A DNA stretch of 62,724 bases, the filler included, from Hausera hauseri (taxonomy: Eukaryota): NCBI GenBank assembly GCA_046269625.1. It is 11 parts of 11 records of this genome, joined end to end, with 100 filler letters (N's around TTAATTAATTAA, not from the genome) between each part and the next. Parts side by side here need not be neighbours in the genome. Positions count along the whole stretch, not along the records: positions 55,995 to 62,724 come from JBJURY010071439.1; 10 more parts are not named here. The stretch is one strand, 5' to 3'. The notes below the pieces were generated by a model. The model searched no databases. It saw nothing but the letters and a program-made list of their open reading frames with translations, and was not told the origin of the DNA. Shown here piece after piece: positions 25,082 through 62,724 of this stretch (position 1 is the first letter of the stretch; the number at the start of each line of letters is the position of its first letter). The position numbers were made by a program, and so were the translations under genes.

Positions 25082-25135
25082 ACTCTAAGATTTACTTATG
25101 GTCGACCTCAGATAGGTGAGGTCGAAAGGGGGAAT

Positions 25136-25614: not shown

Positions 25615-25915
25615 CGAGTTCGGGCGGACAATAAAAGTGACCGCTACACTTACTAAATTGGTAAATAAGTGAGTGAGGCGGAATCTGGTGAGATTAAAAG
25701 AACCACAGAAGTTAAATAAAATAATTTACTGGCAACCTCAAATATAATAACAAAAATAAATAAATAAAAAATAAATATAATAAAATAATAATAATTTTTC
25801 ACAAACAAGAGTAATACAACAAAGGGGTCAACGCACATTAGTACAAACTATAGGTTCTCTGGTATAAATAAAACTGTGGTGTCCTGACTCGCGTGAATGT
25901 GTGAGTGAATGAAAG

Positions 25916-32649: not shown

Positions 32650-35600
32650 ATGTGCAAACTCTACAGAGATTGCATGGCTCAAATCCATGAGCTTGAAAAT
32701 TGCCACAATATTATGAAGAAGTATTTCAGCCATATGTACAACGGGGTTCAGTATTATATATGCCCTACATGTGAAGTAGTGTGCCAAACCAATTATGAAG
32801 ACTTTTACAATGTCCATAAACAGCACTTGATTTCCTTCACAAAGTCGAAAAACAAAAATTCAGTACCAATATGCCAATAATGACTTTCGTGCCAAAGGAA
32901 AATCAAAGATGCAGTTTATATGTGTACTGCACATGTGCAATACACAACCCTCAAAATTGCCACAATGCCATGAGCAGCTATTATTGACACAAGTTTAACA
33001 GGATCATTTATTATATCTGCCCTGGATGTCAGGCTGTATGTGATGGAGAATACATACAGTTTTATAAAGATCACAAACATCCTTTGACTGACTTTGCATC
33101 AAAGTCAAAGAAGATCATCTTTAATGAACATAAGCCAGTTGCACAGCCCGCAGTACCACAGCCTTCAGTACAGCCATATGCAGTATTAAAACGCATATCA
33201 GGCGCATCAGGCGCATCAGGCGTACCGGCTCCATCAAAGAGTCAAAGAAAGCGGCCAGTTGATGCTGCAACATTAAAGACGAAAGTTCCACAAATATATC
33301 ATTGATGCAACTGGTCAAACAACCATGAAGGAGTCCCTGGAGTACACAGACGAAGAAACAGAGGGAATTCTCCAGGATAGCATAGCTGAGCTCAATGCCA
33401 TTAAGACTAATATGAAACTGGAGACCATATAGTCAATGTTGATGGCGAAGAATCCAATAGAGCCTTCAAGACCAGAAATAGACCTATTTTTGAAGCCACG
33501 AATATAGTAGAATGGCTGCATGAAGAGCATGCAAAGCTTATCCGTGAAGCCGATGAGAGTCAGGATAAGAAGGGTGGATAGACTCTGGCAATCATCAAGA
33601 GATTGCCTGTGTATGTTCACGAGTACTCTCCCATGCGGGGCAGTTCTTATATTCAGCTTCCGGAATGGATCGCTAATAAAAAATCATGCATCAATGTCCA
33701 TAATAATGACAACAAGTGTTTCATGTATGCCATTCTATCAAAACTCGTACCAGATCATAAACATGCAGCGAATCGAGTTTGGCTATATAATAATCTGAAG
33801 CACAACTATGACTTCCAATGTACCACATTCCCTCCATCCTTACATGAAATTAAGAAGTTCAGCCGAATCAACAACATATCCATTAACATCATTGGATTAG
33901 ATAATGAGGACAAATTTTATCCCCTGCAGATATATGATACTAAATTGGAAGATCATAAGGATCTGTTCGTACTAGACGATGGAGACAAGAAACATTATGT
34001 TTGGATCAAAAATTTTGAGCGTCTAGTCAGATCCCAAATTACAAATCATCATGGATAAATAAAAATATGTAAACGATGTTTATCTCATTTCATTGGTGAT
34101 ACAGCAGTGAACAAGCTTGCAGAGCACAAAATGTACTGCAACAACAATTACTGTGTAAGACCAGAATTGTCCAAGGGGAACTATATTGAATTCAAGGAGT
34201 TCGAGAAGATCAAGGTCCCAATAGTGATCTGTTGCGACTTTAAGGCTATTCTCAGGCCAATTCACAGCTGCACTCCCAGTGCTCAACATAGCAGCACAAC
34301 GACATACCAATATCATGAACTCTCATCGTATTGCATATATGCCAAAGGACTGGACAGTGAACCATTTTTATTCAGGGGTCCATGTACAGCATCATATTTC
34401 ATGAAACGACTTAAAGACATGGCTCATAGGCTTGGAAACATGCTTCAGAAGCATAAGGATAATATGAGCATGTCGTAGAAACAAGCTGAAGAATGACGCA
34501 AGGCAACAACATATTATGCTCCAAATCATTCACCAAGGATAATCATAAAGTCAAGGATCATTGCTATTTTACAGTAACATATCGGGGCGCAGTATGCAAC
34601 AACTGCAATCTGCGTTGCAAAACATGCATATATGTGCCTGTAGTGTTTCACAATCTCAGTGACTATGATTCCCACTTCATTGTTCAGGAACTGGGCAACA
34701 CTGATAGGAACATTGATGTCATTCCCAATAGTGAGGAAAAATACATCACTTTTACCAAGCATGTCGGCCGCATTAGACTTCGATTATTAGAGAGCTTCCG
34801 CTTTATGAACTCGTCACTGGATAGTTTAGTGAAGAACCTCCCTGCAGAAGACCGGAAGAAGACGAAGCGGTTCTTCCCTACTACCCATCCTTATGACTAC
34901 ATAACTTCATGTGAAACACTGAATGAGACTTCACTGCCGGACAAGAAGGACTTTTACAGTATCCTCTCTCATTGTAATATCAGTGATGCTGACTACCAGC
35001 ATGCTCAGAATGTCTGGCATGCATTCAAATGCCGAACATTAGGGGAATACAACGACATATACCTCAAGACGGACGTTCTGTTGATGACAGATGTCTTTGA
35101 GAGTTACACGGATGTCACAATGAAGAGCCATGCTTTGGATCCGGCTCATTTCTTTACGATTCCAGGGATGAGCTGGACAGCTATGCTGAGATATACCGGC
35201 ATAAGGCTGCAGATCATTAAGAATTACTATATAATCCTTATGATCGAGAGAGGAATTAGAGGCGGAATATGCCAGGCCATTCACCGGTATAGCGAGGTCA
35301 ACAACAAGTATGTGGCCCAGTATGATCCGTCCAAGGAATCCTCATATATATCATACATGGATGTCAACAACTTGTATGGATATGCATTGAGCGCCCAATT
35401 GCCGTATGATGACTTCAAATGGGTCGAGAATCCTGAAACCATCCCTATATTGGACTTGGATCCCACCGGAGATACGGGATATATACTGGAGGTGGATATG
35501 GAATATCCGGCTTTAATCCACGCAAGGCATCAACAGCTGCCTTTCATCCCTGAGTAGGCATCCGCCCCATAGAAAGCAGAGAAAGCTGCTCTGTCAACTG

Positions 35601-35741
35601 GGTAATAGGAAGAGGTATGTAGTTCACTACATCAATCTTCCCCAGGCAGTCAAACATGGACTTTGTATTACCAAGATCCATAGAGCCCTCCAGTTTAGCC
35701 AGTCTATGTGCCTGCAGCCCTACATAGATCACAATACCAAG
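32650..35741 (+). mobile_element. Second Polinton/adintovirus-type pPolB, pseudogenised, cut by the contig end; N-terminal tandem Cys/His domains
   Basis: YSPMRGSSYIQLPEWIANKKSCINVHNNDNKCF; CDFKAIL (ExoI); VKDHC..YRGAVCNNCNL; FHNLSDYD; YLKTDV; GIRGG; YMDVNNLYG. Confidence 0.93.
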
Positions 35742-35841: not shown

Positions 35842-37200
35842 AAACTTAATAAACCAAATCAAAAAATTATTAGACAACAACATACCGGTACCGGTAACAT
35901 AAAAAGTAGGTCATAAAACAAAAATCACTAATACATGATAGTCACTAAAATAATAAATATAAACAGTAATAAAACGTAATAACAAAAAATATAATTATTA
36001 ATAAAATAGCTAATGTCACAAAGAACTATTATGATAAATACAGTGTATGTAAAACGAAATAAAAAAAAAATTATCTTAGTCAATCAATAAAACATATTGT
36101 ATTGTCATGACTTGTCCTATTTTTGTGTAATGTCTTGTCCTTTTTCGTAGCTGTATTTTTTCCAGCAGCGACATTGTCGTCGGTGAAACGAATTCTACAC
36201 AGAGAGTCTACGGGCCGGAAACCGGAAGTGCATCATCATCGGTGGAACCAAGTCTACCCAAGCATTCTATAGCCAGGATTTGTATCAACCACCTGAGAAT
36301 ACCACACAACCTATAGTTTAGATTGGCTTGTGTTGTCATGTTTATTTTTTTGCATATTGTATTGAATTGTTCTGTATTATGTATTTTGTATCGTTCTATT
36401 TTTGTTTGCATTACTTCTTGTATTGTTGTGTGCTTTTGTAGTTTCATTTATCAGATACCCGGAAACGCATTGTCAGCGGCAGATCAAGTTCAACGCAGAG
36501 TCTACAGTCCGGAATCGTGTCAACCACGACAAGCATAGTCCTATGATATAGATCAATCTATAGTTTAGATTAGCTTAAATTGTCATATATATATTTATTT
36601 GCTTAATGTATTGCATTTTTGTCTTTCTAATGCATTTTGTACCGTCCTGTCTTTTTTTAATGTAATATCTTTATTTTTCAGATCCCCGGAAGATGGAAGT
36701 GCACGGTGGATGGATGGATGGATTATGCCTCTGTAACTGCAAGTTCTTCTCTTGGCAGCATTGCTTGATGGAAGCGCACAACGGTGGATCCAAGTCTACA
36801 TGGAGAGTCTGCAGCCTGGAAGAAGGAAGTGAATTTGTTAATTTTGGATCCAATTCTACAGTCTGTATCATCATGTATTTTGTATATTTGTATTGTCCTG
36901 TTTTTGTACCCAGTCTATTTATAATTTAAGAATAAAACATACAAAACAAACATAAAACAGTAATGACACTAAGATACCGGTACCGGTAATATTAAAAGTA
37001 GATAACTGAGCATAACTAAAATAAAATAATCACTAAAATAATAATAAAAAATAAACATAACAAAATAACAATAAATATACAGAAAATAAACAATATAACA
37101 GAATAAACATACATAAAATAAGCAATAATATATAATAATAAAATAGGGCCAATTGTATGTCTTGTAGTCCTGTTAACATAAAATTCGTTTTATGTATGTC

Positions 37201-37279
37201 ATACCCGTGTGAGCCCGGGGTAAAATAGGCGCACTACTCCGCCATCAGTATGTCGTAAGAGGTGACAAAAGATGGGTAT
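37201..37279 (+). ncRNA. Structured RNA motif, copy 1 (candidate retroelement 5' ribozyme)
   Basis: ACCCG/CGGGGT hairpin, AAAATAGG, CCATC/GATGG stem enclosing the TGTCG-TAAGAGG-TGACA hairpin. Confidence 0.45.
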
Positions 37280-38926
37280 TGGGTAGATGATGCTTGCTAA
37301 CCGTAGTTAGCAGTCTGGAAGACGGGAGGGACCTTACCAACAGTGGATTCAAGTCTACATACGGAAGCAGGATGTGTATCATCAGTTTGAATGATGCTGC
37401 GATCCGGGAAAAACGGTCTGCAAGATATGTCATCTGATGCTAACTGTCGCATGTATTATTTTATGTTCTATTATATATTATGTGCATGAAATCCTTTATG
37501 TTTACTATGTGTTTTCTATGTACATTTTTTGTTGTTGCAATGTTATCTTAAGCTTTGTGTTTACTATATTTGCTATGTTTTCTGTATTTTCTTTATATTT
37601 GTCAAATACATGTGTTATGTTATATGCGTGTGAATCTGTGGGCTGAATAGCTTGATTGCTGGAAAAAGGAATGGACATTGTCAACATTGGATCAACATCT
37701 AGCCGGAGAGTACAAAGCCTGAAAGATAGATGCAACTTGTCAGCCCTTGGTCCAAATCTATGCAGAGATTCAGCAGTCTCGAGGACGGATGCGATAACGT
37801 CGACAACGATGCAAGTCCACACGGTGAGTGTACACTCTCATGTCTATTAAATGTGTGTATTGTCCACTGTTGTTGCCTTTTTGCATGTTATATATATATA
37901 TAGGAATTAAACTTAATAAACCAAATCAAAAAATTATTAGACAACAACATACCGGTACCGGTAACATAAAAAGTAGGTCATAAAAAAAAAATCACTAATA
38001 CATGATAGTCACTAAAATAATAAATATAAACAGTAATAAAACGTAATAACAAAAAATATTTTTTAAAATTTATTTTTTTGCATATTGTATTGAATTGTTC
38101 TATATTATGTATTTTGTATCGTTTAATTTTTGTTTTCGTTACTTCTTGTATTGTCATTTGCTTTTGTAGTTTCATTTATCAGATACCCGGAAATGCATCG
38201 TCAGCGGCAGATCAAGTTCAACGCAGAGTCTACAGTCCGGAATCGTGTCAACCACGATAAGCATAGTCCTATGGTTTAGATCAATCTATAGTTTAGCTTA
38301 GCTTAAATTGTCATATATATATTTATTTGCTTAATGTATTGCATTTTTCTTTCTTATGCATTTTGTACTGTCCTGTCTTTTTTTTATGTAATATCTTCAT
38401 TTTTCGGATCCCCGGAAGATGGAAGTGCACGGTGGAAGGATGGATGGATTATGCCTCTGTAACTGCAAGTTCTTCTCTTGGCAGCATTGCTTGATGGAAG
38501 CGCACATCGGTGGATCCAAGTCTACATGGAGAGTCTGCAGCCTGGAAGAAGGAAGTGAATTTGTTAATTTTGGATCCAATTCTACAGTCTGTATCATCAT
38601 GTATTTTGTATATTTGTATTGTCCTGTTTTTGTACCCAGTCTATTTATAATTTAAGAATAAAACATACAAAACAAACATAAAACAGTAATGACACTAAGA
38701 TACCGGTACCGGTAATATTAAAAGTAGATAACTGAGCATAACTAAAATAAAATAATCACTAAAATAATAATAAAAAATAAACATAACAAAATAACAATAA
38801 ATATACAGAAAATAAACAATATAACAGAATAAACATACATAAAATAAGCAATAATATATAATAATAAAATAGGGCCAATTGTATGTCTTGTAGTCCTGTT
38901 AACATAAAATTCGTTTTATGTATGTC

Positions 38927-39005
38927 ATACCCGTGTGAGCCCGGGGTAAAATAGGCGCACTACTCCGCCATCAGTATGTCGTAAGAGGTGACAAAAGATG
39001 GGTAT
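38927..39005 (+). ncRNA. Structured RNA motif, copy 2
   Basis: Identical to 37201-37279. Confidence 0.45.
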
Positions 39006-39847
39006 TGGGTAGATGATGCTTGCTAACCGTAGTTAGCAGTCTGGAAGACGGGAGGGACCTTACCAACAGTGGATTCAAGTCTACATACGGAAGCAGGATG
39101 TGTATCATCAGTTTGAATGATGCTGCGATCCGGGAAAAACGGTCTGCAAGATATGTCATCTGATGCTAACTGTCGCATGTATTATTTTATGTTCTATTAT
39201 ATATTATGTGCATGAAATCCTTTATGTTTACTATGTGTTTTCTATGTACATTTTTTGTTGTTGCAATGTTATCTTAAGCTTTGTGTTTACTATATTTGCT
39301 ATGTTTTCTGTATTTTCTTTATATTTGTCAAATACATGTGTTATGTTATATGCGTGTGAATCTGTGGGCTGAATAGCTTGATTGCTGGAAAAAGGAATGG
39401 ACATTGTCAACATTGGATCAACATCTAGCCGGAGAGTACAAAGCCTGAAAGATAGATGCAACTTGTCAGCCCTTGGTCCAAATCTATGCAGAGATTCAGC
39501 AGTCTCGAGGACGGATGCGATAACGTCGACAACGATGCAAGTCCACACGGTGAGTGTACACTCTCATGTCTATTAAATGTGTGTATTGTCCACTGTTGTT
39601 GCCTTTTTGCATGTTATATATATATATAGGAATTAAACTTAATAAACCAAATCAAAAAATTATTAGACAACAACATACCGGTACCGGTAACATAAAAAGT
39701 AGGTCATAAAACAAAAATCACTAATACATGATAGTCACTAAAATAATAAATATAAACAGTAATAAAACGTAATAACAAAAAATATAATTATTAATAAAAT
39801 AGCTAATGTCACAAAGAACTATTATGATAAATACAGTGTATGTAAAA

Positions 39848-39947: not shown

Positions 39948-40346
39948 ATAATTATTACAGCGTAGGATACTGATAAACAGTACTCTGTATTCATATACCT
40001 ATACTTGGCTACGTAATTCTTCAAACTATGAAGCTACATCTGGAAGACATATCCACCATAATGGGAACTTATCATTTAGCATATGTTGTACTTCTGGAGG
40101 TTTCTCTGGCTCAGTGGAATCTGATTGTAGGGGGTTCAAAACCACACAGTATTCCACTCATGATGGACTGGTCATCTGTTGTGAGTTTTAGTAGGGCCAT
40201 CGAAATGTTGGCAGCTCTTGAGAATGCCCTGACGCACCACAAGGTGTATGTGTCAATTTTATTTTTATTTTATCTGATATGTTGTACTTTTAAAGAAAAT
40301 GACAACTATTTTTGACCCTGTACAACTGTCATAATCACATTCTTAC

Positions 40347-40529
40347 CTTGCTGAGACCTGAATTCAGCTTCTCCCATTGTATGAGGCTGCATGAGCTCTC
40401 CTACTGGTGCTGAGATGGTTACAGAGAATGTCTTCTGCTCACTAGCCAACTGGAAAGCAGCAGGCTGAGTTGTATCATTAAAGTTGATCCCCATAAGGAC
40501 TGAAGTGCTGGCCCCAACACCAAGAGTAG
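40347..40529 (-). CDS. Exon of AP-3 complex beta subunit (C-terminal ear region)
   Basis: AG/GT-bounded exon MGINFNDTTQPAAFQL..FSVTISAPVGELMQP.TM.E.EF..QQG resembles AP3B MGIDF.DSTQ.A.FQL..PPVGELL.P..M.E..F.KEQG. Confidence 0.78.
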
Positions 40530-41021
40530 CTGTAAATTAAAATGTATACAGTACATCAGGGCTATTTAACAAACTCAGGGGACCACAGTTACTCAAAGCC
40601 AACATATCATTAGAAGAAAAATACAGTAAAAACTGACTCTGATACAGTAGTTTTATCAGATCCATTTTTTTATTCAGAAAGAGTTCTGTGCTAATTAATC
40701 TTATAATTCTCCGTGTGATCGGCAGCTAATTAAATCACCGATACATCAAAGCTCTTTGAGCCAGTTCCCAGAACCTGGCTCGCCTTTGCAGAGGCCTGAA
40801 CCTTGCAGAGCTGACAAATCTATCCACATTTGAGCTCATTAAATATTATGAACTCAATCTCTCCCTCTCTCCCAGTTCTCTCTTTACATCCCTATCTGTA
40901 TTTGTCTTTCTATCCGCCATCCTACAATATCCTCCCCTTCTTCAAAGCAGATGGAAAATAAAGTTGTATTCTCATCAATTGAACCAGTCTCAGTGGAAAT
41001 AATTTTTTCACTTCAACAATT

Positions 41022-41039
41022 TGGCGTTGTTGGCAGGAT
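41022..41039 (+). promoter_or_regulatory. Primer binding site, tRNA-Ser-like
   Basis: TGGCGTTGTTGGCAGGAT 3 nt after the LTR end CAACA; 2 mismatches to TGGCGTAGTCGGCAGGAT. Confidence 0.8.
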
Positions 41040-41590
41040 CCATCGCTGGTTCGTCCACTCGTTGGAGTCAGACCGGGGCTGATCACCCAAAAACCTGTCA
41101 CGGTATTTCCTCAACCTCCACCAGGCCAGTCTGTGAGTCGAGGACGGCTACTGCTCCATTGAGAGGACCGGCCGTGACTGAATCCGATACCGAAGAGACT
41201 GAGAGAAACAACTAACAAGGTAATTAAACCTTTCTACTAAATTGTAAGTCCTACAAAAAGGACTGAGTGTAAAAGCCCTATATTCGAGAAAAAAATAAAA
41301 ATAAAAAAAAGGGAAGGGCTGAGTTTAAATTGTAGGCCTTTGGCTAAAGGCTGAGTGTAGGTCCATATATTAGAGAAAAATAAATAAGAAGGACTGAGTT
41401 TAAATTGTAGGTTTTCGGCGTAAAACCGAGGGTAGGTCCTGTTGGAACTGAGTTATGACGTCATAATTGAAGTGTAGGTTTCAACATTAAAAAAGGACTG
41501 AGGTGGAGAAAATTTTTATTTCATAAAAATCTTCTCCAGCCCACCATAAAACACCACCATATATTTGGAATAAAATTACTTTGTTCTAAA

Positions 41591-43645
41591 ATGGGTGGTT
41601 ACCTTAGGAAACACGGAGATGACGATTATATACCTTTTGGGCCCATTATAGACCTTATGAGAGAAAAACACGGAGAGACATGCATTTCTTTTTTGCCACA
41701 ATGGCATAATAAATTAGGTTTTCCTAAAAATGGCAGTCTAGACCCGGCTGACATTCAAAATCTGGAGGAAAAACTAATGAGCCAAAAGCAGAAAATGTTA
41801 AAACATAACAAAATATCTCGCGACCAGCTGGTCACTGAGTGCACATGAGGATGCTTTTAGACCCTGCTTTTAGACTGTGGAAAAATATGTCTTTAATTCA
41901 GCAATCCAAGGTCCACACTATGATTCAGATAATAGGGAAAACAGATTCAAAAATACAAGCCTTAAAAGAAAAATTACCTGATGAAACTAATCCGTCTGTT
42001 TTTTCTTTTCCATCCCCCACACCCTCTCATGCTCGAGCCCCATCCAGGCCCTCGGCCCCTCCAGCGGCTCCTAGTCTGTACCCCTCTCTCACGGGACTAA
42101 GGCACGATCCTCCTCCACCCTACGAATCTCCCACCCCATCCAAACCATCTCAGCCAACACCTAAGCCACGAGGAGGGCCACTCAAAATCCTTTGGCAGTG
42201 TGAGGGAGATGATGATTACCAGAACTGTGGGGATACATCTGACCGCCCTCTTGGTCAGGTTCTGGCTGTTCCAGCTCTCCCACAACAGCAACCAGATCCG
42301 CCTGTTAATGAGCAGCCTGCCCCTTCCACCCCAGGGTGATATAGCTGCAGCTTCAGGCTCCACAGTTCACTCAGATCCACCATCTTCCAACCTCAGAAGC
42401 AAAAAGGTAAAAACCCATGAAGAGTATGAAACTGAACTAAAAAACAAAGAAGCAGAACTAATTGCCCTTCAGAAAGAAGTAGCTAAAGTAGAGGCAAAGA
42501 GAAAAAGAAAACAAAAATCCAAACAAGACCAAGAAGAAAGGCTAAAGCAAGAAGAGGCTGTTGCCTGCCAGCTCCTGAAAGACCTTCTTCTGACCAAGAT
42601 CCCACCCCCATCAGACACTGCCCAAACTCCCCAGCTCCCCGTCGACACCCCACCTGAGGACACCCTCAGTTGTCCCATGGTTGAGGTAGGGGGCCCGCAG
42701 GGTGCACAACTAGTCCTCCGCACCTGGACCCGTATCGAACTGGTAGACATGGCGAAATCCTTCCTACCTGTAGTAGAACAGGGGGGCACAGAAATTGCAA
42801 AAGCCCTGGACACAATGTGCCACACCATGCGCCCCAGCACTGATGAACTGAGGGTTATCTTTGGGTCTGTTTACGGGGTGGGGTTCCTGTCAACTTTGGG
42901 CAACGTTTTTGGGGACGACAATCTTGTCCTTAGAAACATTGATCTAACTCACGCCTCAAATGATGCTTACAAAACAGTTCTCACCGCCATTAAAACCGCT
43001 CTAACTGACAAAATAAAAAAATGCCCCAAAATGAATTTAGTCAAAGTCTGTAAATACCAACTTGGTGATGTCCCCGCTGAATACTATGCCAGACTGAAGA
43101 AACTCTTCGACGTCCATGCTGGTCTGACTGAGCCTAGAAATGAATGGCTAACAGATGCTGACCCTGATCCCTATGAAAGTCTCCTAGCCCAATGTTTCAT
43201 GGATGGTCTGCCACCAACTCTTCAAGCTGCTGTAAAACTCACCTACACCGGCTGGGATGACGGCCTTCGCATGAAAAAGCTCCTTAAACACACAAAACAC
43301 GCTGTGGCCACCCAATCCCTCGCCAAAGAAGAAGCTGAAACAAAAAAGAGCTGCCTCCAGGAAGAAGCCCAGCTGACCCTGGTCCAAGCAGCTTCCACTT
43401 TCTATCAAAATGACCAGGGCAGGAGCCAAGGCCAAGATGACGCCTGTTTTATCTGTGGAGCTGATGACCACTGGTCCAGAAACTGTCCTGATCGCCGTCC
43501 CAGTCGCGGCCGAAGAGGCCGAGGGGGACCACCCAGAGGCCGTAGCTACAACAATAACAACCAGGGCTACAGAGGACAAAAGGGAGGATCCTTTCGTGGG
43601 GGTAAGAGGGGAGGTGTGCCCCCTTTTAGAGGTCAATCTTCATGA
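41591..43645 (+). pseudogene. gag: ERV gag, two frameshifts (about 41840 and 42330)
   Basis: MG myristoylation start, PSAP/LYPSL/PPPY late domains, CFICGADDHWSRNC Zn knuckle, RG-rich tail. Confidence 0.9.
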
Positions 43646-46600
43646 CTACAGCCGCTGGACGGACTCCAAGGACTCCAGCCCCTGATGAGTATCGAAATAC
43701 ACCCACCTAACACATGTTACTTACAATATTCATCCTCTGCTCATTTAAAGCTCCCTATGCTAACTGTACAAGTTCAAAACACACCCATTGATTTTCTTGT
43801 AGACTCAGGAGCCACTCAATCTCTCATTAAACATTCTTGTTTACCTGGAGCACCCCTCTGTGGTCGTACAGTCCACTCCACAGGTGCTTCAGGGGAAACT
43901 GTTCCTGAGCCAGTAACTTCACCACTCTCTTTAACAGACCATTTTTAAAGAAAATCAGACCACACCCCCCAGATGAGTGGCAGTTTGTCCAAGATCTCAG
44001 AGCTGTTAATGCTGCTGTACAACCCCGTGCTCCCATTGTCCCCAATCCTTATACTATCTTAACTCAAATACCTTCTTCTAGCACTTGGTTTACAGTTATT
44101 GATCTAGCTAATGCTTTTTTCAGCATCCCTATGCACCCTGACAGCCAGTTCTGGTTTGCTTTCGAGTTTAAAGGCAAGTCTTATACATTCACTCGCCTGT
44201 GTCAGGGATACTGTGAATCTCCTACCATTTTTCACCAGGCTTTGAATGATAACCTTGCTTCTTTTTTCCTGCCTGCAGGATCTGCTCTGCTCCAATATGT
44301 TGATGATCTCCTCCTTGCTGCACCCTCCAAGGATGAGTGCATCACCCAGTTTTTCCGTCTTCTCTCCTTCCTAGCTGAAAATGGTCATAAAGCATCAAAA
44401 TAATAAATAATAATAATAAATAAGCTCCAATTTGTCCAACCAACTGTTACATTTCTGGGTCACGTCATCTCCAAAGAGGGAAGGGCCATAGCTCAACCTC
44501 GTGTTGACGCTATTGTTTCACTGCCTCTTCCCAAAACTAAAAAACAACTTATGTCTTTCCTAGGTCTGTGTGGGTATTGTAGGCATTTCATTCCATGTTA
44601 TGCTGAGTTAGAAACCCCATTAAGAGAAGTATGTCATGACAAGGGGTTACAAATGAGCTCACATGTCAACTGGACTGCAGCTGCCATAAAAGCCTTCGAA
44701 GCGCTCAAAATTCAATTACAAAAAGCACCCACTCTTGGTATTCCAGATCCAACTCGTCCTTTTGTGCAGACGGTGGATGAGAAGTGCGGTTGCATGACTT
44801 CTGTTTTGCTCCAAAAACATGGCGACAGATTGAGACCAGTTGCTTATTTTAGTTCTAAATTGGATCCTGTTGCAGCTGGCCTGCCCCACTGCCTTAGAGC
44901 CGTGGCGGCCGCGGATAAGGCTGTAACAGCATCCCGAGACATTGTGGGTTATTCTGATCTGACCCTCCTCGTTCCCCACGCTGTCACCCTCATCCTCAAC
45001 GAACAGAAAACCGCTCATTTATCTACTGCTCGTTGGTTGAGGTATCATGCTAGCTTATTAGACATGCCTAACATCACCATCCAGCGCTGTAATGTTCTTA
45101 ACCCTGCCTCTTTGCTCCCAACACCTGAGGACGGCCAACCTCATGACTGTGTTGCTGAACTTGACGTCATCTGCTCACCTAGACCTGATCTACAACAACA
45201 TCCCCTTGTCTCTCCAGACTGGGAACTCTTTGTAGATGGCTCCGCCTCTCGTGACCCCCACACTGGCTCCGCCCTGTGTGGCTATGCTGTTGTGACAGCT
45301 TCTGAGGTCATTGAAGCCCACCCCCTGTCCTCTTGTTCCGCCCAAGCCTGTGAACTTATCGCCCTGACTCAGGCCTGCATTTTGTCTTCTGAAAAATCTG
45401 TAAATATTTACACTGACTCTCGTTATGCTTTTGGTGTTGTTCATGATTTTGGTGCCTTATGGAAACACAGACGTTTCCTTCGGTCAGATGGCCCATTTTA
45501 AATCACCTTCTAGTCTGACCTCTTAGAGGCCATTATGCTCCCGTCCCAAATTGCTGTTATAAAATGTTCTGCCCACACATCTTCTATAGATCCTGTTTCT
45601 TTAGGAAATGCATTTGCTGACTCTACAGCTAAATCTGCCGCCCGACTGACCACTGACCTACTCTTACCACTACTACCCTCTGACCCACCTCTCTCATTAT
45701 CTGATTACAGAAGTTCTCCACTCCTGCTGAACGCTCCTCCTGGAAATCCTGTGGCTCCTCCTTCACTGACTCCATCTGGATTGGCCCTAATGGTAATCCA
45801 TAAACAATTTTTTTCCCAGCTTTCGCCGTTTTGACACACGGTCCTGACCATGTGTCAAAGGGAGGAATGCTGAGGGTCATTGATAAACACTGGTTCACCA
45901 TAAATCTTTCAAAAACAGCAAAATCCTTCTGTGACTCCTGCTTAACATGTGCTACACACAACATAAGCAGAGGTCAGAAATTAACAACACAAGGAGCACA
46001 TAAGCCCACCTGTGTTCCTTTCCAACACCTAATGATTGATTTTATAGAAATGACCCCAGTGGAAAATAAAAAGTATTGTCTAGTTATGGTTGACATGCCA
46101 AAGCAGTTGCTAAATGTCTGCTCACAGATGTAATCAGCAGATGGGGTATTCCCCGCCGAATCAGCAGTGACAATGGACCCCACTTTGCAAATCAGATAAT
46201 GACTGAAGTCTCCCAACTACTAGACATTGATCTAGCAAAACACTGTGCCTACCACCCTCAGAGTGGTGGTGCAGTAGAGCGTGAAAATGGAACATTAAAA
46301 CTGAAACTAAACAAAATTTGTTCCCACACAGGTCTCAACTGGGTCCAAGCCCTGCCTATTGCTCTCATGTCCATGAGAATGAGGGAAAGAGCCAAACATA
46401 ACCTTTCACCTTTTGAAATCCTTTTTGCAGGACCGCCCAACCTTGGTCTGGGCCCACCAAAAGACCCTCACAGCTGTCTCACCACATGTGATGACAAAAT
46501 GCTCCAATACTGCATTGAACTAACAAAATCTTTGACTTCTCTCAGGAAAAATGTTCAAGGAGGACAACCTGGACCAGCACAAGAATCGTTGCATTCTATA

Positions 46601-46760
46601 CAGCCTGGAGATTTTGTTATGCTTAAAAATTTCAGGAGAAAGCGGTGGAACAGTCCAAGGTCCCTTCCAGGTCCACCCACACCGCTGTGAAGGTCGCTGA
46701 ATGAGCCACTTGGGTCCACGCCTCCCACTGCAAAAAAGTTCGGGACCAGCCCACCATCAT
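43646..46760 (+). pseudogene. pol: ERV pro-pol (protease, RT, RNase H, integrase), defective
   Basis: FLVDSGA; VQDLRAVN, YVDD; FVDGS, IYTDSRYAF; H..H..C..C, SDNGPHF, HPQSGGAVEREN. Deletion at about 43945; (TAA)n insert at about 44400. Confidence 0.93.
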
Positions 46761-47561
46761 CCGGCCCGGGAGGACCAGACAAACCACCAGCATCCTAGAA
46801 CCCCTAGGCTGCCACCTACAGCTCACTCAGTGTCTCAGGACAGCTGAGGCTGCATTTCCTCAAACAAGATCAGAGAAGACAACTCCACATAATGCCTGGT
46901 GCCAACACCAGGACCCCCAGATGGGTACAACACTCCATACTATATTACATTTTCACATTAATAGCCATATTGATATTTCTGTTTTCATGGTATTCACACC
47001 CCTCTCAGAAACCCCTTTTCAGCCCTAACACAACCTCAGATGACCCCTATCTGAGGACGAAGATGCCTTTGTTCTCACACGCCCCAAAACCCTCAGCTCA
47101 AAGTTGTAAAGGCCATTCATTATTTTTATCCTTATCTTAACAAGGGTTGTTAGCTATTTCTGTATCTTTTCATTATGATGTTTTTGAGTGTCTTTTCTTT
47201 TATGATTTAGACAGCCCTGTCTGTCTCTTGCAGATGTTTTTTTATTTTATTTTATTTTTATTATTATTTTGTTGTTTGATTCTTCCCTTATTTGAAGAAT
47301 TTTTGGTGTCTGTCTATTTTTTCGTGTTTTTAACTTACATTTGTTCTTTTTGTCTGCAGTTCATTTCTTGCCCCTCCGACCATGCATTTTGCCACTGCTG
47401 GAGTAGGCCCAGGGTGATGTGTCTGTTTTCCTCCACTACAATTCAAACACAGCCTACAGATGGAGGTTTTTCCAGAACATATGGTCATCTTATGGACGGC
47501 GGCATTTGTGATATTTTATTTTCTATTTTTAATTGTTCCATTAGGAACAAAAGGGAGGAAT

Positions 47562-48028
47562 TGTGAAATAAAATATGTATTAAATAAGACTCAATGCATT
47601 TACATTAGATTAAGCAGTTTCATTAGTTATTTGTGTCATCAGATGCTGTTGCACACAGTGTAAGTTTGTTTTACAAGGTTGCAGCAAAACATGAGTTTTT
47701 GTAGATAGGCTTAACAAAACGCCCTTGATGGGAGTCTGGGAAGAGGCGACAAAGTTATCCAAGGAGCATAACGAAACAACTGTGGTATTTGATAGAAATT
47801 GTTTCCCAGAGAAACTAAAATGTGCAACGTCCACGCAACCATGAAAGAATGTAGACGCAACCCTGTGTGTCTGTGAAGAACTGTATAAAAGATGTAACTG
47901 TGTACTGCTTACTCAGAGCTCACCCGGACTGCCCGGGTGCGTCTCTCCATCTGCGCAGATGAAAAATAAAAACTTGTTTCTCTTCAATTTTAAACAGTCT
48001 CAGTGGAAATAATTTTTTCACCTCAACA
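47562..48028 (+). repeat. ERV 3' LTR
   Basis: PPT AAAAGGGAGGAA then TG..CA; TATAAAA at 47884, AATAAA at about 47965; the last ~75 nt match 40947-41018. Confidence 0.88.
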
Positions 48029-48794
48029 ATTGTTATTAAAGACGAGGATGTTGATCCAGTTAGTCTGCTTCAGGAGGTCCAACCTGATCTGGTTTCAGCT
48101 CAGAACATTTATGAAAACAGTTTGTGTTTGTGAGAAGAATGTGTCCAGATGTTTGCAGCAGCAGAGGACACATTCATGTCAGCTCCCACTGAAAACAACA
48201 TGTTGCAGATGAAATCACAACAAGAGCTGCTGCAGAGAAACACCAGCTCCTCCTGACCCGGGAAGGAGAAGCAGGAGAAGAAACTGGAGGAAATCAATGA
48301 AATAAATAAAATAATTAGATGTTTAGATCAGGAGAAGAGAAAAGAGGAGGAGGAGGAAGATGAAAAGTCTGACAGACAGATGAAGAAGAGTTCTTACAGT
48401 TTGTTCAAGTTTAAAAAGAACTCTTGTCATAAAAAATAATGTTTTGTTTCCATCAGCTGCCTCACTAAGCTAACATGTCACATGACTGAATTAATTTAAC
48501 TTCAGCTTCAAAATAAGAAAAACAAATCAGCCGATGAACGTCTGCTGATCACTTCCTGTTTCAGTTCAGTGGTTCATAAGATATTTTGCTAACACACAGG
48601 AAAACCCTCATCTTTCACTTTAAACAGCTGCTGCCTCTCATTTAGAGCAAACCACACAAAATGATTTGAAACATTATTTTATCTGAGTTTTGATTTTCCA
48701 GGTGAAAATGTAAAATCTGTTGAAATCTGAGCCGTCTTCTGGCAGCCATGTTTTTATTTTCTGTTTGTTCGCTGCGTTTACAGCTGAGCCCAAT

Positions 48795-55894: not shown

Positions 55895-55994
55895 NNNNNN
55901 NNNNNNNNNNNNNNNNNNNNNNNNNNNNNNNNNNNNNNTTAATTAATTAANNNNNNNNNNNNNNNNNNNNNNNNNNNNNNNNNNNNNNNNNNNN
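55895..55994. other. Artificial contig spacer
   Basis: N-TTAATTAATTAA-N. Confidence 0.99.
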
Positions 55995-56463
55995 CTTTCC
56001 ATTGTACGTGTACTGCCCGAGAGATAATTGTTATCGGCCTTTCTATTGCGCTACAGCCAGCCCGAGACCCTATACGATCGGTCCCGCTGACTTAAACTAT
56101 GTAAATTGTCGATTATAAATCTGACTGAAATTTAATGTAGCCGAATGGCTCAAATTGAAATAAAATGAAATAATTATATTTAAATAATAATAATAATAAT
56201 ATTAATAATAATATTTTAATAATATTAATAATAATGATAATATTTATATATAAATTATAAAATTTTTGAATTTTTTTTTTTTTTTTTAAGAGCCGAAGGT
56301 CATCCTTCGAGCCAGTCACTTTTCCGGGGGAAGCGGGCTCTAGATCCACATGCGGAGCTTGAAGCCAGCACCGGAATAGGATTTTAATTAATTAACTTAG
56401 ATGTTTTTTCGCTTATTAATTTAAATGTATTTTTATTTATTTATTTATTTTATTTATTTTTAG

Positions 56464-56910
56464 ATGATAAATTTTGAGCAGTGCATTAGGATATGGAAAA
56501 TATTTAATTCCTTGCAACGGGATGTGTTGCATAGAAAATTAATATGGTGTCGTGGACAGCAGGAACGTTTCGAGGATTTGGGTAGGCGCATGGAACAAAG
56601 AAGGGATGAAATTTGTGTTTTGTATTGTGGATCGCGGGATACCGATTTTTTAGATTTGTATAATGAGATTCGTGGTGCTATAGCGGAGTTAAGGCAGTGT
56701 CTTGCGGAATTGTTGGATCGGATGGAGTCTTATCGTCAAGCCTTGGAATATTATTGTTTATATGTAGATGGGGAAACCTATTACTACGAAAACACGGATG
56801 ATATTTTAGAGTATTGGAATGGGCTTAGCACGGAGGAACAGGTGAAGTTGTTACGAGAGCATGAGCGACGTATAATAGACTTGCAGCATGATTTAGTATG
56901 GAATATGTAA
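56464..56910 (+). CDS. 148-aa acidic, probably helical protein of unknown function; likely the last exon of a spliced gene
   Basis: Preceded by a T-rich tract and TAG acceptor; TATAAA at 56114; AATAAA at 56920. Confidence 0.65.
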   Translation: MINFEQCIRIWKIFNSLQRDVLHRKLIWCRGQQERFEDLGRRMEQRRDEICVLYCGSRDTDFLDLYNEIRGAIAELRQCLAELLDRMESYRQALEYYCLYVDGETYYYENTDDILEYWNGLSTEEQVKLLREHERRIIDLQHDLVWNM

Positions 56911-56935
56911 ATGTTTTATAATAAATGTTTATGTG

Positions 56936-57002
56936 TGTTATTTTTTAATGTGGCCGACGCCGGTCTTAAGCCCGGGTGAAAAACACAGAAAGGAAAATAA
57001 CA
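56936..57002 (+). ncRNA. Twister ribozyme (P1 type)
   Basis: P1 TGTTATTTT/AAAATAACA; U^AA cleavage site (56946/56947); P2 TGTG/CACA; GC/GC pseudoknot; P4 CCGG/CCGG with loop TCTTAAGC; TCTT/AAGG pseudoknot; conserved GA. Same layout as the rice twister UAA-P2-GCC..CCGGUCCCAAGCCCGG..GAGGG. Confidence 0.88.
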
Positions 57003-57008
57003 TATATT

Positions 57009-58241
57009 TTATTTGAATAAAACATTATCACGAATTGATGTTAGTATTCGTGTTATTTCTGGGTCATCGTAATTGATGCTCATTGAAAATTTGATCGGAC
57101 GTATTGTGTTGATTAGTAATCGTCGTACGAAGAATGAGAGGTATTGACGAAGGGATTATAACACTTTTGTAAAGGCCTCTTATTGATCTATTATCATTCT
57201 GGTGATTACACTGAATGATACTGAGGAACGTATCTGGCGGTGTGTCGTGAAATCCTATGTCATCTAGGACGACGAGGTCGTATTCACCTGTCCAGTCCAC
57301 TGGACAGTCGTGTAGTGAGTGGAGAATTAATGGGTTGTTGCCGTGTGATAAGGCAAACGAGGTTTTGCCGATATTTGAGGCAACAAATATGATCGCTGAG
57401 TTTATACCTCTGTCTGGTTGAAATGTAATTTTGTCAATTAGAAATTCTAGATCTCTTCTGGGAACGTATCTTTCCCGAAATTTATTCCTGACGTAGGTAC
57501 ATAAGAGCTTGTTCCTGGTGACAAATTCGGCCCTGTCACCCTCTTTCATTATTTCTAATGCCTCATTGGCTGATTTGGCATCATCGAACATCCGGTATAC
57601 CGCCTTTCTGCTGGTGTTGTCCCGGAGTACGTTAAAGGGCGGTACACCGAATTGAACGACAGTTGCGCCCTCGAAGGTGGGCTTATGATGGTATAGGTAG
57701 ACCTGTTAAATTAATAATAATATTAATAATATAAATTTGTATACTTTTTGTATGTCTTCTCTAAACGGTAAGATGAAAGCTCCCAATATCTTCCACATCG
57801 TTCTCATTCGATATGGTTGTGGTGTATGAATGAGAACGTGTAGATGCTTGTTACCTCCTTTGGATAATTCCTCTTGGAGGCGGATGAACCATTTGTGTTT
57901 ATAGTGCATTGGGAGGTAGACTGATTCAGCAAAGTATCTTCCTGTGAAATCTTCATCAATTTTGTGTACAAGCATGAAATGTCTGAATGTTGCTGATCTG
58001 GGAGGCATAGCAAGTTTATTAATGTCTTCAGTAAATTTAGATTGTAATGAATCAAGGATATCTTTGTCAAATGCGTTGTCCGGGAACAACGGGATATCCT
58101 TTTCAGTAAATACATGAAAATTTCTGCGATATTTCCTTTATTTCAAAAATTAAAATTTAAAAAAATATCAAAATGTACCTTTCATTATTATCTACATGCT
58201 CATTAGGTTGTACCATTTGTCTTTCTACATAAACATTGTCC

Positions 58242-58243
<2 letters not shown>
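57009..58243 (-). CDS. rep: CRESS-type Rep (HUH endonuclease + SF3 helicase), three exons: 58243-58179, 58135-57745, 57702-end; 3' deletion/frameshift
   Basis: FMLV (motif I), QEE..G.KHLHVLI (II), YHHK (III), VASNIGKT (Walker A, first G lost), VVLDDIG (Walker B), FVRRL arginine finger in a shifted frame ending at 57009; GT-AG introns. Confidence 0.85.
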
Positions 58244-58272
<29 letters not shown>

Positions 58273-58603
58273 TAAATATATTTTTAAGTTTTTGGCTCAA
58301 AAAGTAGTAAAAGAGTTTTCAATATGAATTGAGCCGGCTCAAATTGTATATATATTTGTTGAAAACAAAATGAGCCGGCTAGAAAATGCATTATGTGTGT
58401 GTAAAATTATCTGCAGTTGGTTACAAAAATTAATCAATAATGTTAAGTAGTTTCCGCGGCTGTAATTAGCCTGCGGTTCTCGGCTATTACATGCAAATGA
58501 CTGACAGCCACTTAAGTGGCCACTTGAGTTTGTGTGTAGCTACCGCCGATAATTAGACTGCGTTTATCGGGCAGCTAATGCACCGGACTTTCCATTACTA
58601 ATG

Positions 58604-58844
58604 GATTTATGCACGAGTTTTCTGGAGGCAAATGATTGTTTGGTTTGATAAGGTGCAAAAAATCTGTCATGGCTTCAATGATGTGATGTGTTTTCAGTAG
58701 AGACCGCATAAGCGTATTGTAATTGTCGGTTATAGATTTATTAGGCATATAGATTGAGTTAACGAAATAATCATTATTTATAACTGACAACCGCGTATGT
58801 GTGTCTGGTATGTGTTGGGCTTGTCTAATTAAATTAGCACTCAT
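58604..58844 (-). pseudogene. 5' part of an unknown ORF, truncated next to the CRESS unit; paralog at 62285-62724
   Basis: 58604-58716 is identical to 62611-62724. Confidence 0.65.
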
Positions 58845-59278
58845 ATCAGAACAAATAAGAAAAAGAACAAAATTATATTCAATATATACAACATGTACAA
58901 CACGAGAAAATGAGCATGCAAATGAGCACCAATCACAACGTCACGTGGTGATCAATGCCGAAATCAACATTCAGGCTATTAACTCCATTACCCCCAGGGG
59001 CACTATTCATATATTCTGCATCATTTCCCGTATTTAAGAAATCGACCTGTGGAGCAACATAGCACCTTTCACTGCACATGTGGAAAGGGTTCAAAATTTC
59101 GTTATATGTCGGACGATAATCAACCGGAACAAAAGTTGGCGTATTTAAAACACTCAATTCGATGGTCATCAATAGAAGAAATCTGATCCGGAATATAAAT
59201 ACTCAAACCCTGCGGTAAAACAGTGCTATGAGCAACATTAGGTACACTGGATTGAGACTGAATCTAATTATAATATAA

Positions 59279-60396
59279 TTATAAAAATAAAGAAATAATT
59301 AAAACCTGATTATAATTTTTTGCTAATTGCCTGAAGTCCACCTTGTTCTGACTTAGGAAATCATCTCTACTATTTCCGGTTCTATACAACATAAAATCAC
59401 CTAGGTCGTACAACAGGCACCTCTTTAAACAAGCCTCTTTGACTGAGGTCCATACGTCTGGACCATTTTGTTTACACAAAGAAGTAAATCCATTCGATCA
59501 TTCATTTCTTGTACATCTGTCAATCCGTACAACAGAAGAACGTCACGGAAATCTTCGATTTCGTACTTTTCTAACATTTTATCAATATTCTTCGTCCAAA
59601 AGATTATGCCGTCGGCTAGCAATATTCTTCTTTCCATATCCCATCTTTTGTTATTTTTATATTTCTAACGACAAAGGAACGGATTCTTTTGGCTAAATAG
59701 ATCCATATAAATTATATGTCAAAGAATAAAAAGTATATTAATTTGGTCTAACATTTGTATGTTCTCTAAATAATTTGGCACCCATGACATATTTCAGTGA
59801 TACTATCACACAATCCTCAGTAAATATGTTTAATTAAAACATGATTTTCATTGCCTTAATAGATAGTTGCAATGAATCCGATGAAATATTTTATTTGTTA
59901 AAAAAACGCTTAATTTGTATTATTTGGAATTCTACTCAATAGGTCTTGCCTCATCACATAAAATTGACGACATATGAATTGCATCAGTTTGTGCGGCCTT
60001 CCAAAGTTTCTGACATGGTTTGAATATACATTTTCATATGTATTTCATGGGATTGAATTACATCATGCGGTAATTTTGGAACCTTCATGAATGCTTCTTT
60101 TCTTTTCTGTTGGTGAATTACTCGGTGCAACAGATTATTTTTAACCATTTTGTTTACACAAAGAAGTAAATCCATTCGATCATTCATTTCTTGTACATCT
60201 GTCAATCCGTACAACAGAAGNNNNNNNNNNNNNNNNNNNNNNNNNNNNNNNNNNNNNNNNNNNNNNNNNNNNNNNNNNNNNNNNNNNNNNNNNNNNNNNN
60301 NNNNNNNNNNNNNNNNNNNNTGTATTTCATGGGATTGAATTACATCATGCGGTAATTTTGGAACCTTCATGAATGCTTCTTTTCTTTTCTGTTGGT
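59279..60396 (-). pseudogene. Duplicated fragments of an unknown ORF around a scaffold gap
   Basis: LLYGLTDVQEMNDRMDLLLCVNKMV occurs at about 59464-59538 and 60145-60220; 60040-60113 repeats at 60321-60395. Confidence 0.55.
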
Positions 60397-61010
60397 GGCA
60401 TCACAACGGACTTGTACAAACCCCTAATGCTCCTATTATCATTAGGATGGTTGCACTGAATAATAGAAAGGAATAAGTCAGGACGACGTCACTGAATCCG
60501 ACATCATCAAACACTAACAAATCGAATTCGCCACTCCATTCAGGAGTGTCGTGAAGCGAATGGAGAACAAGAGGGTTAGATCCGTGACTAATAGCATAGC
60601 ATGTCGTCCCTATATTTGAACTACCAAAGATAAGAGCGCTATTTACACCGCGATTAATATCAAAAGCTATAGGAGGTAACGTAAACACAAAATTATTAGC
60701 CAAACACACCTTAGGTCGAAATTCCGCACTTACATAAGACGTTAACATCTTATGCCGAGTTACAAATTCAGCGCGATCGCCATCTTTCATTATTTGCATG
60801 GCGTCGGCTACAGTTGGGGCCTCATCAAACATCCTATACAAGGCCTTCCTACTAGTGTTATCCTTCGTTATATCTATCGGAGGGACCCCAAACTCAATAA
60901 CAAAAGAATTTAAACTAACTTGTTTGCAATGATACTTATAAACGGCAAAAACATCATGCCGAAAAGGTATTACGTATTGTAAATCAAAAACAGCTTTAAA
61001 TTGGGACAAT
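60397..61010 (-). pseudogene. rep: Second, divergent Rep copy, truncated at both ends and intronless
   Basis: FGVPP..DNTSRKA.YRMFD.A..DRAEFVTR.K, GSSNIGTT, LLVFDDVG, then frameshifted FLSIIQCNH.NDNRSIRGLYKSV. Confidence 0.85.
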
Positions 61011-61135
61011 CTCAAATGCAAACAAAAAACATTAAGGAATTTTCGTCGTAAAGGAAAATTTCAAACTGTCACAAGATATTTATATAAGAAATAGGCAGAT
61101 ATGTGAAATTAATGTTAATTAATAATACGAAAGAT

Positions 61136-61957
61136 AAATGAAATTAAATGAATATAACATCTTTACCACTATTTTCATGGCTACTTCCAGCAACTGGACT
61201 AATCTAAAATTATAGCGGTTATTTAAATAATAACAATGTGAAAAAATATAGTAATGAAATTAAATTAATATTACGTCTCACTTTTCATGGCCACTTCCAG
61301 CAACTGGATTAATCTAAAATTGTAGCGGTTATTTAAATAACAATAATATTAAAAACAGAAATGAAATTAAATGAATATAACCTCAACAACTATTTTTGTG
61401 GCCATTTCCAGCAACTGGACTAATATAAAATTATAGTGATTATTTAAATAACAATAATATGAAGAGAAATGAAATTAAATGAATATAACCTCTACCATTA
61501 TATTCATAGCCATTTCCAGCCACTGGACTTATCTAAAATTATAGTCGTTATATGAATAATAGTAATATGAAAAAAGATAGAAATGAAATTAAATGAATAT
61601 TACTTCGACCACTATTTTTATGGCTATTTCCAGCAATTGGACTAATCTAAAATTAGTGGTTATTTAAATAACAATATGAAAAATGATAGAAATGAAATTA
61701 AGTTAATATAACCTCTCTACCGCCATTTTCATGGCTACTTGCAGCGACTGTACTATCTGAATTTAGTGTTTATTTAAATAAAAATAATATGAAGTAAGAT
61801 AGAAATGAAATTAAATGATTATTACCCCTCTACCACTATTTTCATGGCCGCTTCCAGCAACTGGATTAATCTAAAATTAGTGGTTATTTAAATATCAATA
61901 ATATGAAAAAAGATAGAAATGAAATTAAATGAATATTACCTCTCTACCACTATTTTC
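61136..61957. repeat. Imperfect tandem array, about 110-120 bp unit, 7 copies plus a partial
   Basis: AAATGAAATTAAATGAATA..CATGGC.ACTTCCAGCAACTGGA.TAATCTAAAAT repeated. Confidence 0.92.
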
Positions 61958-62284
61958 GCGCAACCGATATACATAGGGCTAAACATAGCAAAGGCTAAAC
62001 ATAGTCACCTTGTTTGATATCACCTTGTTTCATGGCCCCTAGGTTCATATTATGCTAAGCACTGTGCTCAAAAATCTCCTCGAAGATTCTTTTTTTTAAT
62101 TAATACTGGGATAACAGATAATGAGCATGCATGAAGAATGTACAAATGTCGAGGATAGTCTTTGTAATAATGTGAGGTATATTTATTCTACATCACTGAT
62201 GATCCGAGCATCTTCAGGAATCGGGATCGTCAGATGACATGGGTAGTGTTTCATTTAAGTCTGCTTCTAAACCGAGGAATAGAG

Positions 62285-62724
62285 TTAATACCAATCATTA
62301 AGGTAACCTTTTATATCTGATGGTTTGAATACTTCAATGCACAGAGGACATGGATTATTGTGTAATTTCGATTTACGGGGGCAATAAGTGTCGGATACAT
62401 TCATCAGAGCTTTGTATAAATCATTGCATATCTGACTTTCGGAATGTAGAACAATAGTAGACAATCCAATATCTGTTGTTGTTACAATTCCATTAAGTTG
62501 CATCCTTACAGGCATGCAATCTTTAATTTGACATTCATCTGCTAACCTGGCATAAGTATTTAACTGATCGAAATTCAGATGAGATAAATCCTTTGTTAAC
62601 AGTGTCACGTGATTTATGCACGAGTTTTCTGGAGGCAAATGATTGTTTGGTTTGATAAGGTGCAAAAAATCTGTCATGGCTTCAATGATGTGATGTGTTT
62701 TCAGTAGAGACCGCATAAGCGTAT
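62285..62724 (-). CDS. Unknown protein, 5'-incomplete, with a C..CPLC motif
   Basis: 143+ aa frame; its N-terminal part can be inferred from the copy at 58604-58844. Confidence 0.5.
   Translation of the reverse strand, partial: TLMRSLLKTHHIIEAMTDFLHLIKPNNHLPPENSCINHVTLLTKDLSHLNFDQLNTYARLADECQIKDCMPVRMQLNGIVTTTDIGLSTIVLHSESQICNDLYKALMNVSDTYCPRKSKLHNNPCPLCIEVFKPSDIKGYLNDWY

Follow-up and report, generated by a model that had tools for sequence, protein, structure and literature searches.

A 2.6-kb unit from Hausera hauseri (assembly GCA_046269625.1), located at 55995-58596 of the 62,724-nucleotide stretch of DNA analyzed here (the window), is best explained as a broken, nonautonomous copy of a multicopy, capsid-less family derived from circular single-stranded DNA replicons that encode Rep (CRESS replicons), whose Rep joins an HUH endonuclease to a superfamily 3 (SF3) helicase. 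We give an even chance to this explanation. In it, the copy probably sits integrated within the DNA of a eukaryote whose introns are short and AT-rich, and the family has probably moved by rolling-circle release, driven by Rep, followed by re-joining at the origin hairpin. The window consists of 11 small unrelated scaffolds joined by 10 identical artificial linkers (N44-TTAATTAATTAA-N44), and the scaffold under study (JBJURY010071439.1) spans 55995-62724 with one 100-N gap. The linker before it (55895-55994, no strand) is nonbiological and separates unrelated scaffolds; 55995 is the first base past it and thus an assembly edge, with the sequence to its left foreign to the element. Published work is cited by PubMed Central number, and statements about these papers hold for the excerpts used.

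The rep gene was found on the minus strand as three predicted exons (58243-58179, 58135-57745, and 57702-57064). Exon 1, called from sequence only, has its ATG at 58243, right after a (TA)n run. Predicted intron 1 (58136-58178, 43 nt, 88% AT) and predicted intron 2 (57703-57744, 42 nt, 90% AT) both have GT-AG ends and keep the phase, in agreement with the spliced Rep that an earlier note on this DNA had proposed; intron 1 fits the phase of exon 1, and intron 2 is in phase 0, contains an in-frame stop, and falls between the HUH motif and the catalytic tyrosine. The related Rep of the neighboring unit is contiguous at this site, which supports intron 2. Reading the in-frame TAA with a ciliate code was rejected, because the GT-AG ends, the 90% AT content, and the intron-free neighbor explain the stop. 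Exon 2 (57745-58135) carries a motif I-like FMLV and the HUH motif HLH; its match to PF00799 (E = 0.007) is below the cut-off, and an HUH-type fold is predicted. Exon 3 (57064-57702) carries motif III (YHHK), the oligomerization domain, and the SF3 helicase.

What the earlier note missed is that this Rep is broken. The Walker A motif is damaged, its first glycine being absent here and kept in 20 of the 20 other aligned rows, and a frameshift lies near 57135. The frame stops without the conserved helicase C terminus, motif C is missing, and an arginine-finger-like stretch appears in another frame from about 57135. Contigs of a sequencing run with matching sequence (run X1) depart from the window sequence at 57133 and 57136, which would fit a deletion at a 4-nt overlap. 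Because the helicase is broken, the copy is not an autonomous replicon as written.

The searches showed that Rep is a CRESS-type HUH and SF3 protein on its own long branch. A phmmer search of 1.84 billion representatives gave 89 matches with E values of 0.001 or less, none at 1e-10, with identities of 23 to 37%, and a CRESS Rep Pfam domain (Viral_Rep, Gemini_AL1, or Gemini_AL1_M) was present in 22 of the 30 best matches. The structure model (pLDDT 72) had CRESS, crucivirus, and begomovirus Reps as its best named fold matches. In the PDB sequence search the single Rep matched nothing, and the Rep profile matched Reps. No close relative was found by the word-indexed protein search or in viral contigs, metagenome contigs, and plasmids. 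A quick tree of 130 rows and 219 columns, built without named family references, grouped the two Reps of the window together (SH-aLRT 99). The stem of this clade measures 1.55 changes per site, and no reliable sister emerged; its placement was rejected as uninformative, since it joins another long branch.

Both ends of the unit fall in one origin-like hairpin core. The 9-mer CTTTCCATT is present at 55995-56003 and 58588-58596, the four 8-mers of the terminal pairing described in the earlier note are all in place, and TGCAC and GTGTA occur at 58579 and 56008. The nested stem drawn from these motifs was borne out: as separate strands, the 60 nt after the left core and the 68 nt that end at the right core pair at -18.6 kcal/mol, which was matched by 5 of 1,000 shuffles. 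Of 1,278 scaffold windows compared as partners of the left end, each of the 8 best overlaps the right terminus. By itself, the 9-mer is weak. It occurs twice against 1.25 copies expected, at least two copies were seen in 33 of 100 shuffles of the window, it was repeated in 19 of 500 shuffles of the scaffold, and the first 9 or more bases are repeated in 2 of the 10 other scaffolds. Both terminal arms also fold on themselves, each as an imperfect palindrome. Part of the pairing between arms probably reflects a single palindromic motif that occurs on either side, which a Rep-binding origin would be expected to have.

The left half of the hairpin (55995-56056, plus strand) consists of the core, then GTAC, and then the arm; the left core copy reads TTCCATTGTAC. 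The right half (58441-58596, plus strand) contains a degenerate second copy at 58463-58502, palindromes, an arm at 58534-58583, and the core at 58588-58596. Although the stem-loop pairing itself is supported, the core does not fit NANTANTAN, and the resemblance of the right copy to NANTATT^AC did not survive, since its AC is the center of a junction palindrome, TCCATTA-C-TAATGGA (58591-58605, no strand), while the left copy continues with GTAC. For the same reason TTCCATTAC was rejected as a true nonanucleotide. From the left core and by analogy, T^AC at 56005/56006 is a candidate nick site. A pattern scan for the origin core was also discarded; it gave at least 120 chance matches, and Rep was found at 0 of 80 new loci.

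The junction palindrome links the right core to the neighboring unit. From the right core the sequence passes through a perfect 7-bp fold-back into the middle of an open reading frame (ORF) of that unit; where the 114-nt repeat that closes the unit on itself occurs a second time, this ORF keeps its frame. One X1 contig of depth 163 shares the sequence from 56014 onward, diverges before it, and carries the same core there in the opposite orientation, indicating that the element family rearranges at the hairpin. The earlier note had taken the unit as a circular replicon or HUH transposon inserted at its nick site. The unit length (2602 - 9 = 2593 nt) was confirmed, and the placement of both ends in one hairpin core agrees with that view. 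However, the true self-overlaps of this scaffold are 77 and 114 nt, not 9 nt, and 0 of 46 matching X1 contigs pass 55995. An opening exactly at a nick is not evident either: the core is present at each end, which makes the stretch a little longer than one unit, and fold-back filler follows at the right. No set of copies sharing these ends but differing in their flanks was obtained.

Between the converging genes, a type-P1 twister ribozyme (RF03160) is predicted at 56942-56996 (plus strand, 55 nt). The twister named in the earlier note matched the type-P1 model with 40.2 bits (E = 2.5e-6), a score that is below the Rfam gathering score of 67.2. Compared with Table 1 of PMC8501958, P1, UAA, P2, GC, P4, L4, and L1' are all in order; the P1, P2, and P4 stems, the UAA cleavage loop, and the L4-L1' pseudoknot partners are all present, and a change of CC to UU in L4 is matched by GG to AA in L1'. 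In contrast to the type-P1 twisters of that paper, P3 is minimal and the score is under the gathering level. The twister identity is plausible from these motifs. A poly(A)-like signal, AATAAA, occurs for each of the two genes, at 56920 on the plus strand and at 57013 on the minus strand; the predicted ribozyme starts 22 nt past the signal on the ORF2 strand and ahead of the rep signal. A diverged X1 contig also spans this stretch. Among the distant viral relatives, the 20 scanned (of 40) gave 0 Rfam matches. Schistosoma twister variants precede ORFs of non-long-terminal-repeat retrotransposons (PMC8501958), whereas here the predicted twister follows a gene on its 3' side, within a DNA replicon. 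In the literature searched, no case of a ribozyme in CRESS replicons or DNA viruses was found; the ribozyme of PMC11071296 is a DNA-nicking hypothesis for anelloviruses, and the excerpt of PMC6765202 does not name a CRESS or DNA-replicon context.

The convergent ORF reported earlier, ORF2, is present at 56464-56910 on the plus strand. It encodes 148 amino acids, is net acidic, and is predicted to be almost entirely helical. It is longer than expected by chance, as a stop-free frame of at least 140 amino acids appeared in 7 of 2,000 shuffles. The lack of an evident capsid gene was upheld as well: no homologue or similar fold of ORF2 was found in Pfam, PHROG, word-indexed protein, fold, or Atlas searches, and it has no jelly-roll. 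A single-sequence model was helical at low confidence (pLDDT 68). In distant relatives a larger ORF stands in the place of ORF2, and it carries a capsid Pfam domain in 8 of the 20 tested. Going by this model, ORF2 may be a helical coat protein; one CRESS genome with a helical coat-like protein has been reported (PMC11071296).

Upstream of ORF2, a TATA-like run near 56246 lies in an AT-only spacer (56161-56289, no strand, 2% GC) that is probably the ORF2 promoter region. It is followed by a GC-rich island (56290-56382, plus strand, 58% GC) with a predicted long stem (z = -2.2, 4 of 200 shuffles) and no Rfam family. This island is flanked by AT-only tracts and has purine-rich internal loops; in the leader of ORF2 it may form a structured RNA of a kind not yet described. 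A hepatitis delta virus or hairpin ribozyme in it was rejected by eye against known patterns and by the lack of an Rfam match. A hammerhead at 56104-56165 was rejected also; it shows hammerhead-like spacing of CUGACUGA, a stem, and GAAA, but one extra core base against CUGANGA and no Rfam match. A candidate AT-rich GT-AG intron (56403-56463, plus strand, 61 nt, or 37 nt if starting from 56427) ends directly before the ORF2 ATG. Palindromes of GAGCCGGCTC upstream of rep (58328-58383) resemble the GGCTCAAATTG motif found upstream of ORF2 (56135-56156), and they may be a promoter element that the two genes share.

Relatives of the unit were seen in run X1, in which half of the sampled words were found. 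Matching covered 55995-58136, and such contigs can show presence, never absence, so the stretches in this range without an X1 contig (much of ORF2 and Rep exon 2) carry no evidential weight. Forty-six contigs matched, 13 at 99% identity or more, 5 at 95 to 99%, 14 at 90 to 95%, and 14 under 90%, and 41% of them continue into dissimilar sequence. Depths were 4 to 6 for the exact-match pieces and 115 to 163 for the diverged ones (115 to 138 for the diverged Rep pieces). Among the differences listed for Rep exon 3 (38, with 66 more rows unlisted), 31 are at codon position 3 (P = 1e-9), so the Rep lineages evolved apart under purifying selection. The longest partly matching X1 record is 78.5 kb; it could be a chromosomal copy with flanks if the match, whose matched part is unlisted, is not merely AT-rich sequence.

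The neighboring unit (58604-62724, minus strand) is about 3.7 kb and self-closing through a 114-nt repeat: 58604-58717 equals 62611-62724, and an ORF is in frame across the closure. Every ORF in it is on the minus strand, with 0 Pfam matches, and the unit did not yield an origin-like core flanked by arms. A more decayed related Rep lies at 60401-61060, 1.8 kb from the 2.6-kb unit, with 54% identity to the Rep of that unit over the shared part. Its lesions are different: GKT is changed to GTT, the frame is shifted, and the HUH exon was not found. An intron candidate of 42 nt is present at 59264-59305. At 61136-61957, 7.4 copies of a 114-nt repeat combine mini-exons of about 45 nt (ISPVAGSSHENSG-like) with AT-rich GT-AG introns of about 70 nt, several with stops; this array looks like a captured, decayed host gene. 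The intron candidate of the same size and the decayed mini-exon array give the element a host-like context. At 59462-60397, overlaps of 77 nt flank the N gap, which points to a 682-nt sub-loop or rearranged variant that was scaffolded instead of resolved.

Elsewhere in the window, the scaffolds at 39948-48794, 22686-27421, 31766-35741, and 1-5912 carry what we take, from translations judged by eye, to be retroviral gag-pol and env, a Polinton-type polymerase, and Ty3/Gypsy fragments. These retroviral, Polinton-type, and Ty3/Gypsy-like scaffolds appear unrelated to the 2.6-kb element. The scaffold at 35842-39847 contains a 1.73-kb tandem duplication of 98.6% identity and a 213-nt terminal repeat.

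Taken as an integrated, decayed member of a CRESS-derived family, the unit suggests the following course. Host splicing would remove the two introns of 42 and 43 nt to yield Rep. An intact Rep from another copy would nick the hairpin loop, and the unit between two cores would be released as a circle and re-joined; this copy would be mobilized only in trans. At the right junction, the nicked end may have folded back, copied a few of its own bases, and joined into the neighboring ORF. The predicted twister would cut the ORF2 transcript just beyond its poly(A) signal, reducing read-through into rep antisense. Origins of geminiviruses and circoviruses are recombination hot spots through replicational release (PMC3187698). 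Integration, which we hold with middling confidence, is favored over a free defective circle because of the repeated independent decay and the intron-bearing neighbors.

Several points weigh against integration. The left flank and any host gene are both unseen, and the right junction lies outside the stretch compared with run X1. The matching sequence comes from a single run, which may itself be the source of the assembly, and its depth is not calibrated on the single-copy depth of the host. The third-position bias shows that the relatives stayed functional as they diverged, as members of a replicating swarm of viruses or plasmids would, and the self-closing neighboring unit could equally be a free circle or come from a tandem array. 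Fold-back junctions are also produced by whole-genome amplification. In addition, splicing, nicking, and ribozyme cleavage are predictions from the sequence.

The best-surviving alternative, clearly less probable but a serious one, is a defective free subgenomic circle, or one segment, that replicates in the sequenced eukaryote and belongs to a CRESS virus or nuclear plasmid not yet described. The scaffold would then begin at the origin as origins assemble badly, and the join to the neighbor would be a circle recombination or an amplification chimera. The variant swarm with its very unequal depths and third-position bias fits such a circle, as do the self-closing neighbor and its 682-nt sub-loop. 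Geminiviruses commonly form subgenomic molecules that carry deletions, inversions, and pieces of host DNA (PMC3187698), and Rep-only circles, reads not spanning an anellovirus origin, and the CRESS genome with a helical coat-like protein have all been reported (PMC11071296). The distant relatives are ordinary viral contigs of 2 to 5 kb, with the capsid domains noted above. However, none of the 46 X1 contigs spans the circle junction at 55995, and the terminal overlap is 9 nt rather than 77 nt or more. Two Reps within 6.7 kb have decayed in several independent ways beside a decayed mini-exon array, and slow neutral decay fits this better than fresh defective molecules.

Rather unlikely is a true HUH transposon that keeps the SF3 helicase, namely, a domesticated CRESS replicon that copies and pastes itself and whose ends are the two halves of the origin. 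Each end has a short direct repeat, a feature that Replitrons also show (PMC10288648), and this, the host-size introns, the right end within an ORF, and the many copies are consistent with it, but the fold-back filler at the right junction is not a clean HUH strand transfer, and one junction was seen rather than a set of copies sharing ends with different flanks. It is very improbable that the unit is a real Rep fossil whose ends match by accident, owing to the points at which the assembler broke the sequence: taken singly, the 9-mer is close to chance expectation, the left end is the scaffold edge, and self-palindromic arms sharing one motif inflate the arm-to-arm pairing, but the best pairing partner of the left end directly precedes the second 9-mer (the best 8 of 1,278 windows), the right junction falls independently on the core, and an abundant X1 relative diverges at the same hairpin with an inverted core there (one contig).

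Next, we compared the integrated-family reading with known systems. The closest in layout are the yam EGV1, with tandem units of 2,642 bp that carry rep and ren without a coat protein, and the Nicotiana (tobacco) GRD, arrays of truncated rep and origin (PMC5014472). The earlier note did not recognize its combination of features as described; the 2.6-kb unit with rep, a small second ORF, an origin, and no coat protein has this parallel, but the twister, the introns, and the Rep lineage remain new. The element resembles EGV1, EGV2, and GRD in its unit size of about 2.6 kb, in having rep with an origin hairpin and a small second ORF while lacking a coat protein, in its many distinct copies, in its degenerate or truncated reps (GRD), and in the proposed rolling-circle spread (PMC5014472). 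Rep and origin without a coat protein were thus found here as in EGV and GRD; a geminivirus-derived Rep with a TAATATTAC origin was not. Unlike theirs, this Rep is not begomovirus-like (PF00799 is subthreshold, and the branch is long and its own), and the core is TTCCATT, not TAATATTAC. The element has two predicted short introns and a predicted twister, and chromosomal head-to-tail tandem arrays such as those of EGV and GRD (PMC5014472) were not seen here.

As in Cressdnaviricota, an HUH endonuclease is fused to an SF3 helicase, with the helicase broken in this copy, but no capsid gene was found. Unclassified CRESS DNA viruses and cruciviruses share the fold of HUH and SF3 Rep, the helicase signature, and the ambisense convergent layout, and spliced Reps have been predicted for 36 cruciviruses (PMC7468197, PMC6186406). 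In contrast to them, the element has no jelly-roll capsid, its second ORF encodes a predicted helical protein of 148 amino acids against 240 to 503 amino acids in the relatives tested, one intron is inside the endonuclease domain, and the relatives (20 scanned of 40) had no Rfam match. Alphasatellites and Rep-only circles also combine Rep and origin without a capsid and have an AT-rich spacer (PMC6186406, PMC11071296); Rep-only contigs appear at about 1 to 2 kb (PMC11071296), whereas the element is larger, has a second ORF, introns, a predicted ribozyme, and a broken Rep, and its circular state is unseen. Replitrons share a single-tyrosine (Y1) HUH Rep, a short terminal direct repeat, a terminal hairpin, and introns (two in Replitron-1) (PMC10288648); the 9-nt terminal direct repeat found here has one copy at the scaffold edge. 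Replitrons lack a helicase and Helitrons combine a two-tyrosine (Y2) Rep with a superfamily 1B (SF1B) helicase, unlike the Y1 and SF3 Rep found here (PMC10288648). Replitron identity was rejected since an SF3 helicase domain is present against the helicase-less definition (PMC10288648), and Helitron identity was rejected on the single-tyrosine motif YHHK and the SF3 fold against Y2 and SF1B. Altogether, the Rep lineage, the origin core, the intron within the endonuclease, and the predicted twister are new; spliced Reps and Rep-only circles are already known. The pairing of host-style introns with a predicted self-cutting RNA in a rolling-circle element was not found described in the literature searched.

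Capsid-less arrays of rep and origin have been described mainly from plant geminiviruses. With a distant Rep, another origin core, and host-size introns, the element would show the same path from virus to mobile element in another eukaryotic lineage, with many diverged copies. In a bolder and speculative version, the unit would represent an unsampled capsid-less, CRESS-derived mobile lineage that keeps the SF3 helicase, carries host spliceosomal introns in its endonuclease gene, inserts via its origin core, and ends transcription between converging genes with a twister; eukaryotes would then have a third kind of HUH mobile element, in addition to Helitrons and Replitrons, and the lineage would be the first Rep-encoding DNA replicon with a self-cleaving ribozyme. 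If the predicted twister works, it would have a testable role in a DNA replicon, in ending transcription and lowering the amount of double-stranded RNA.

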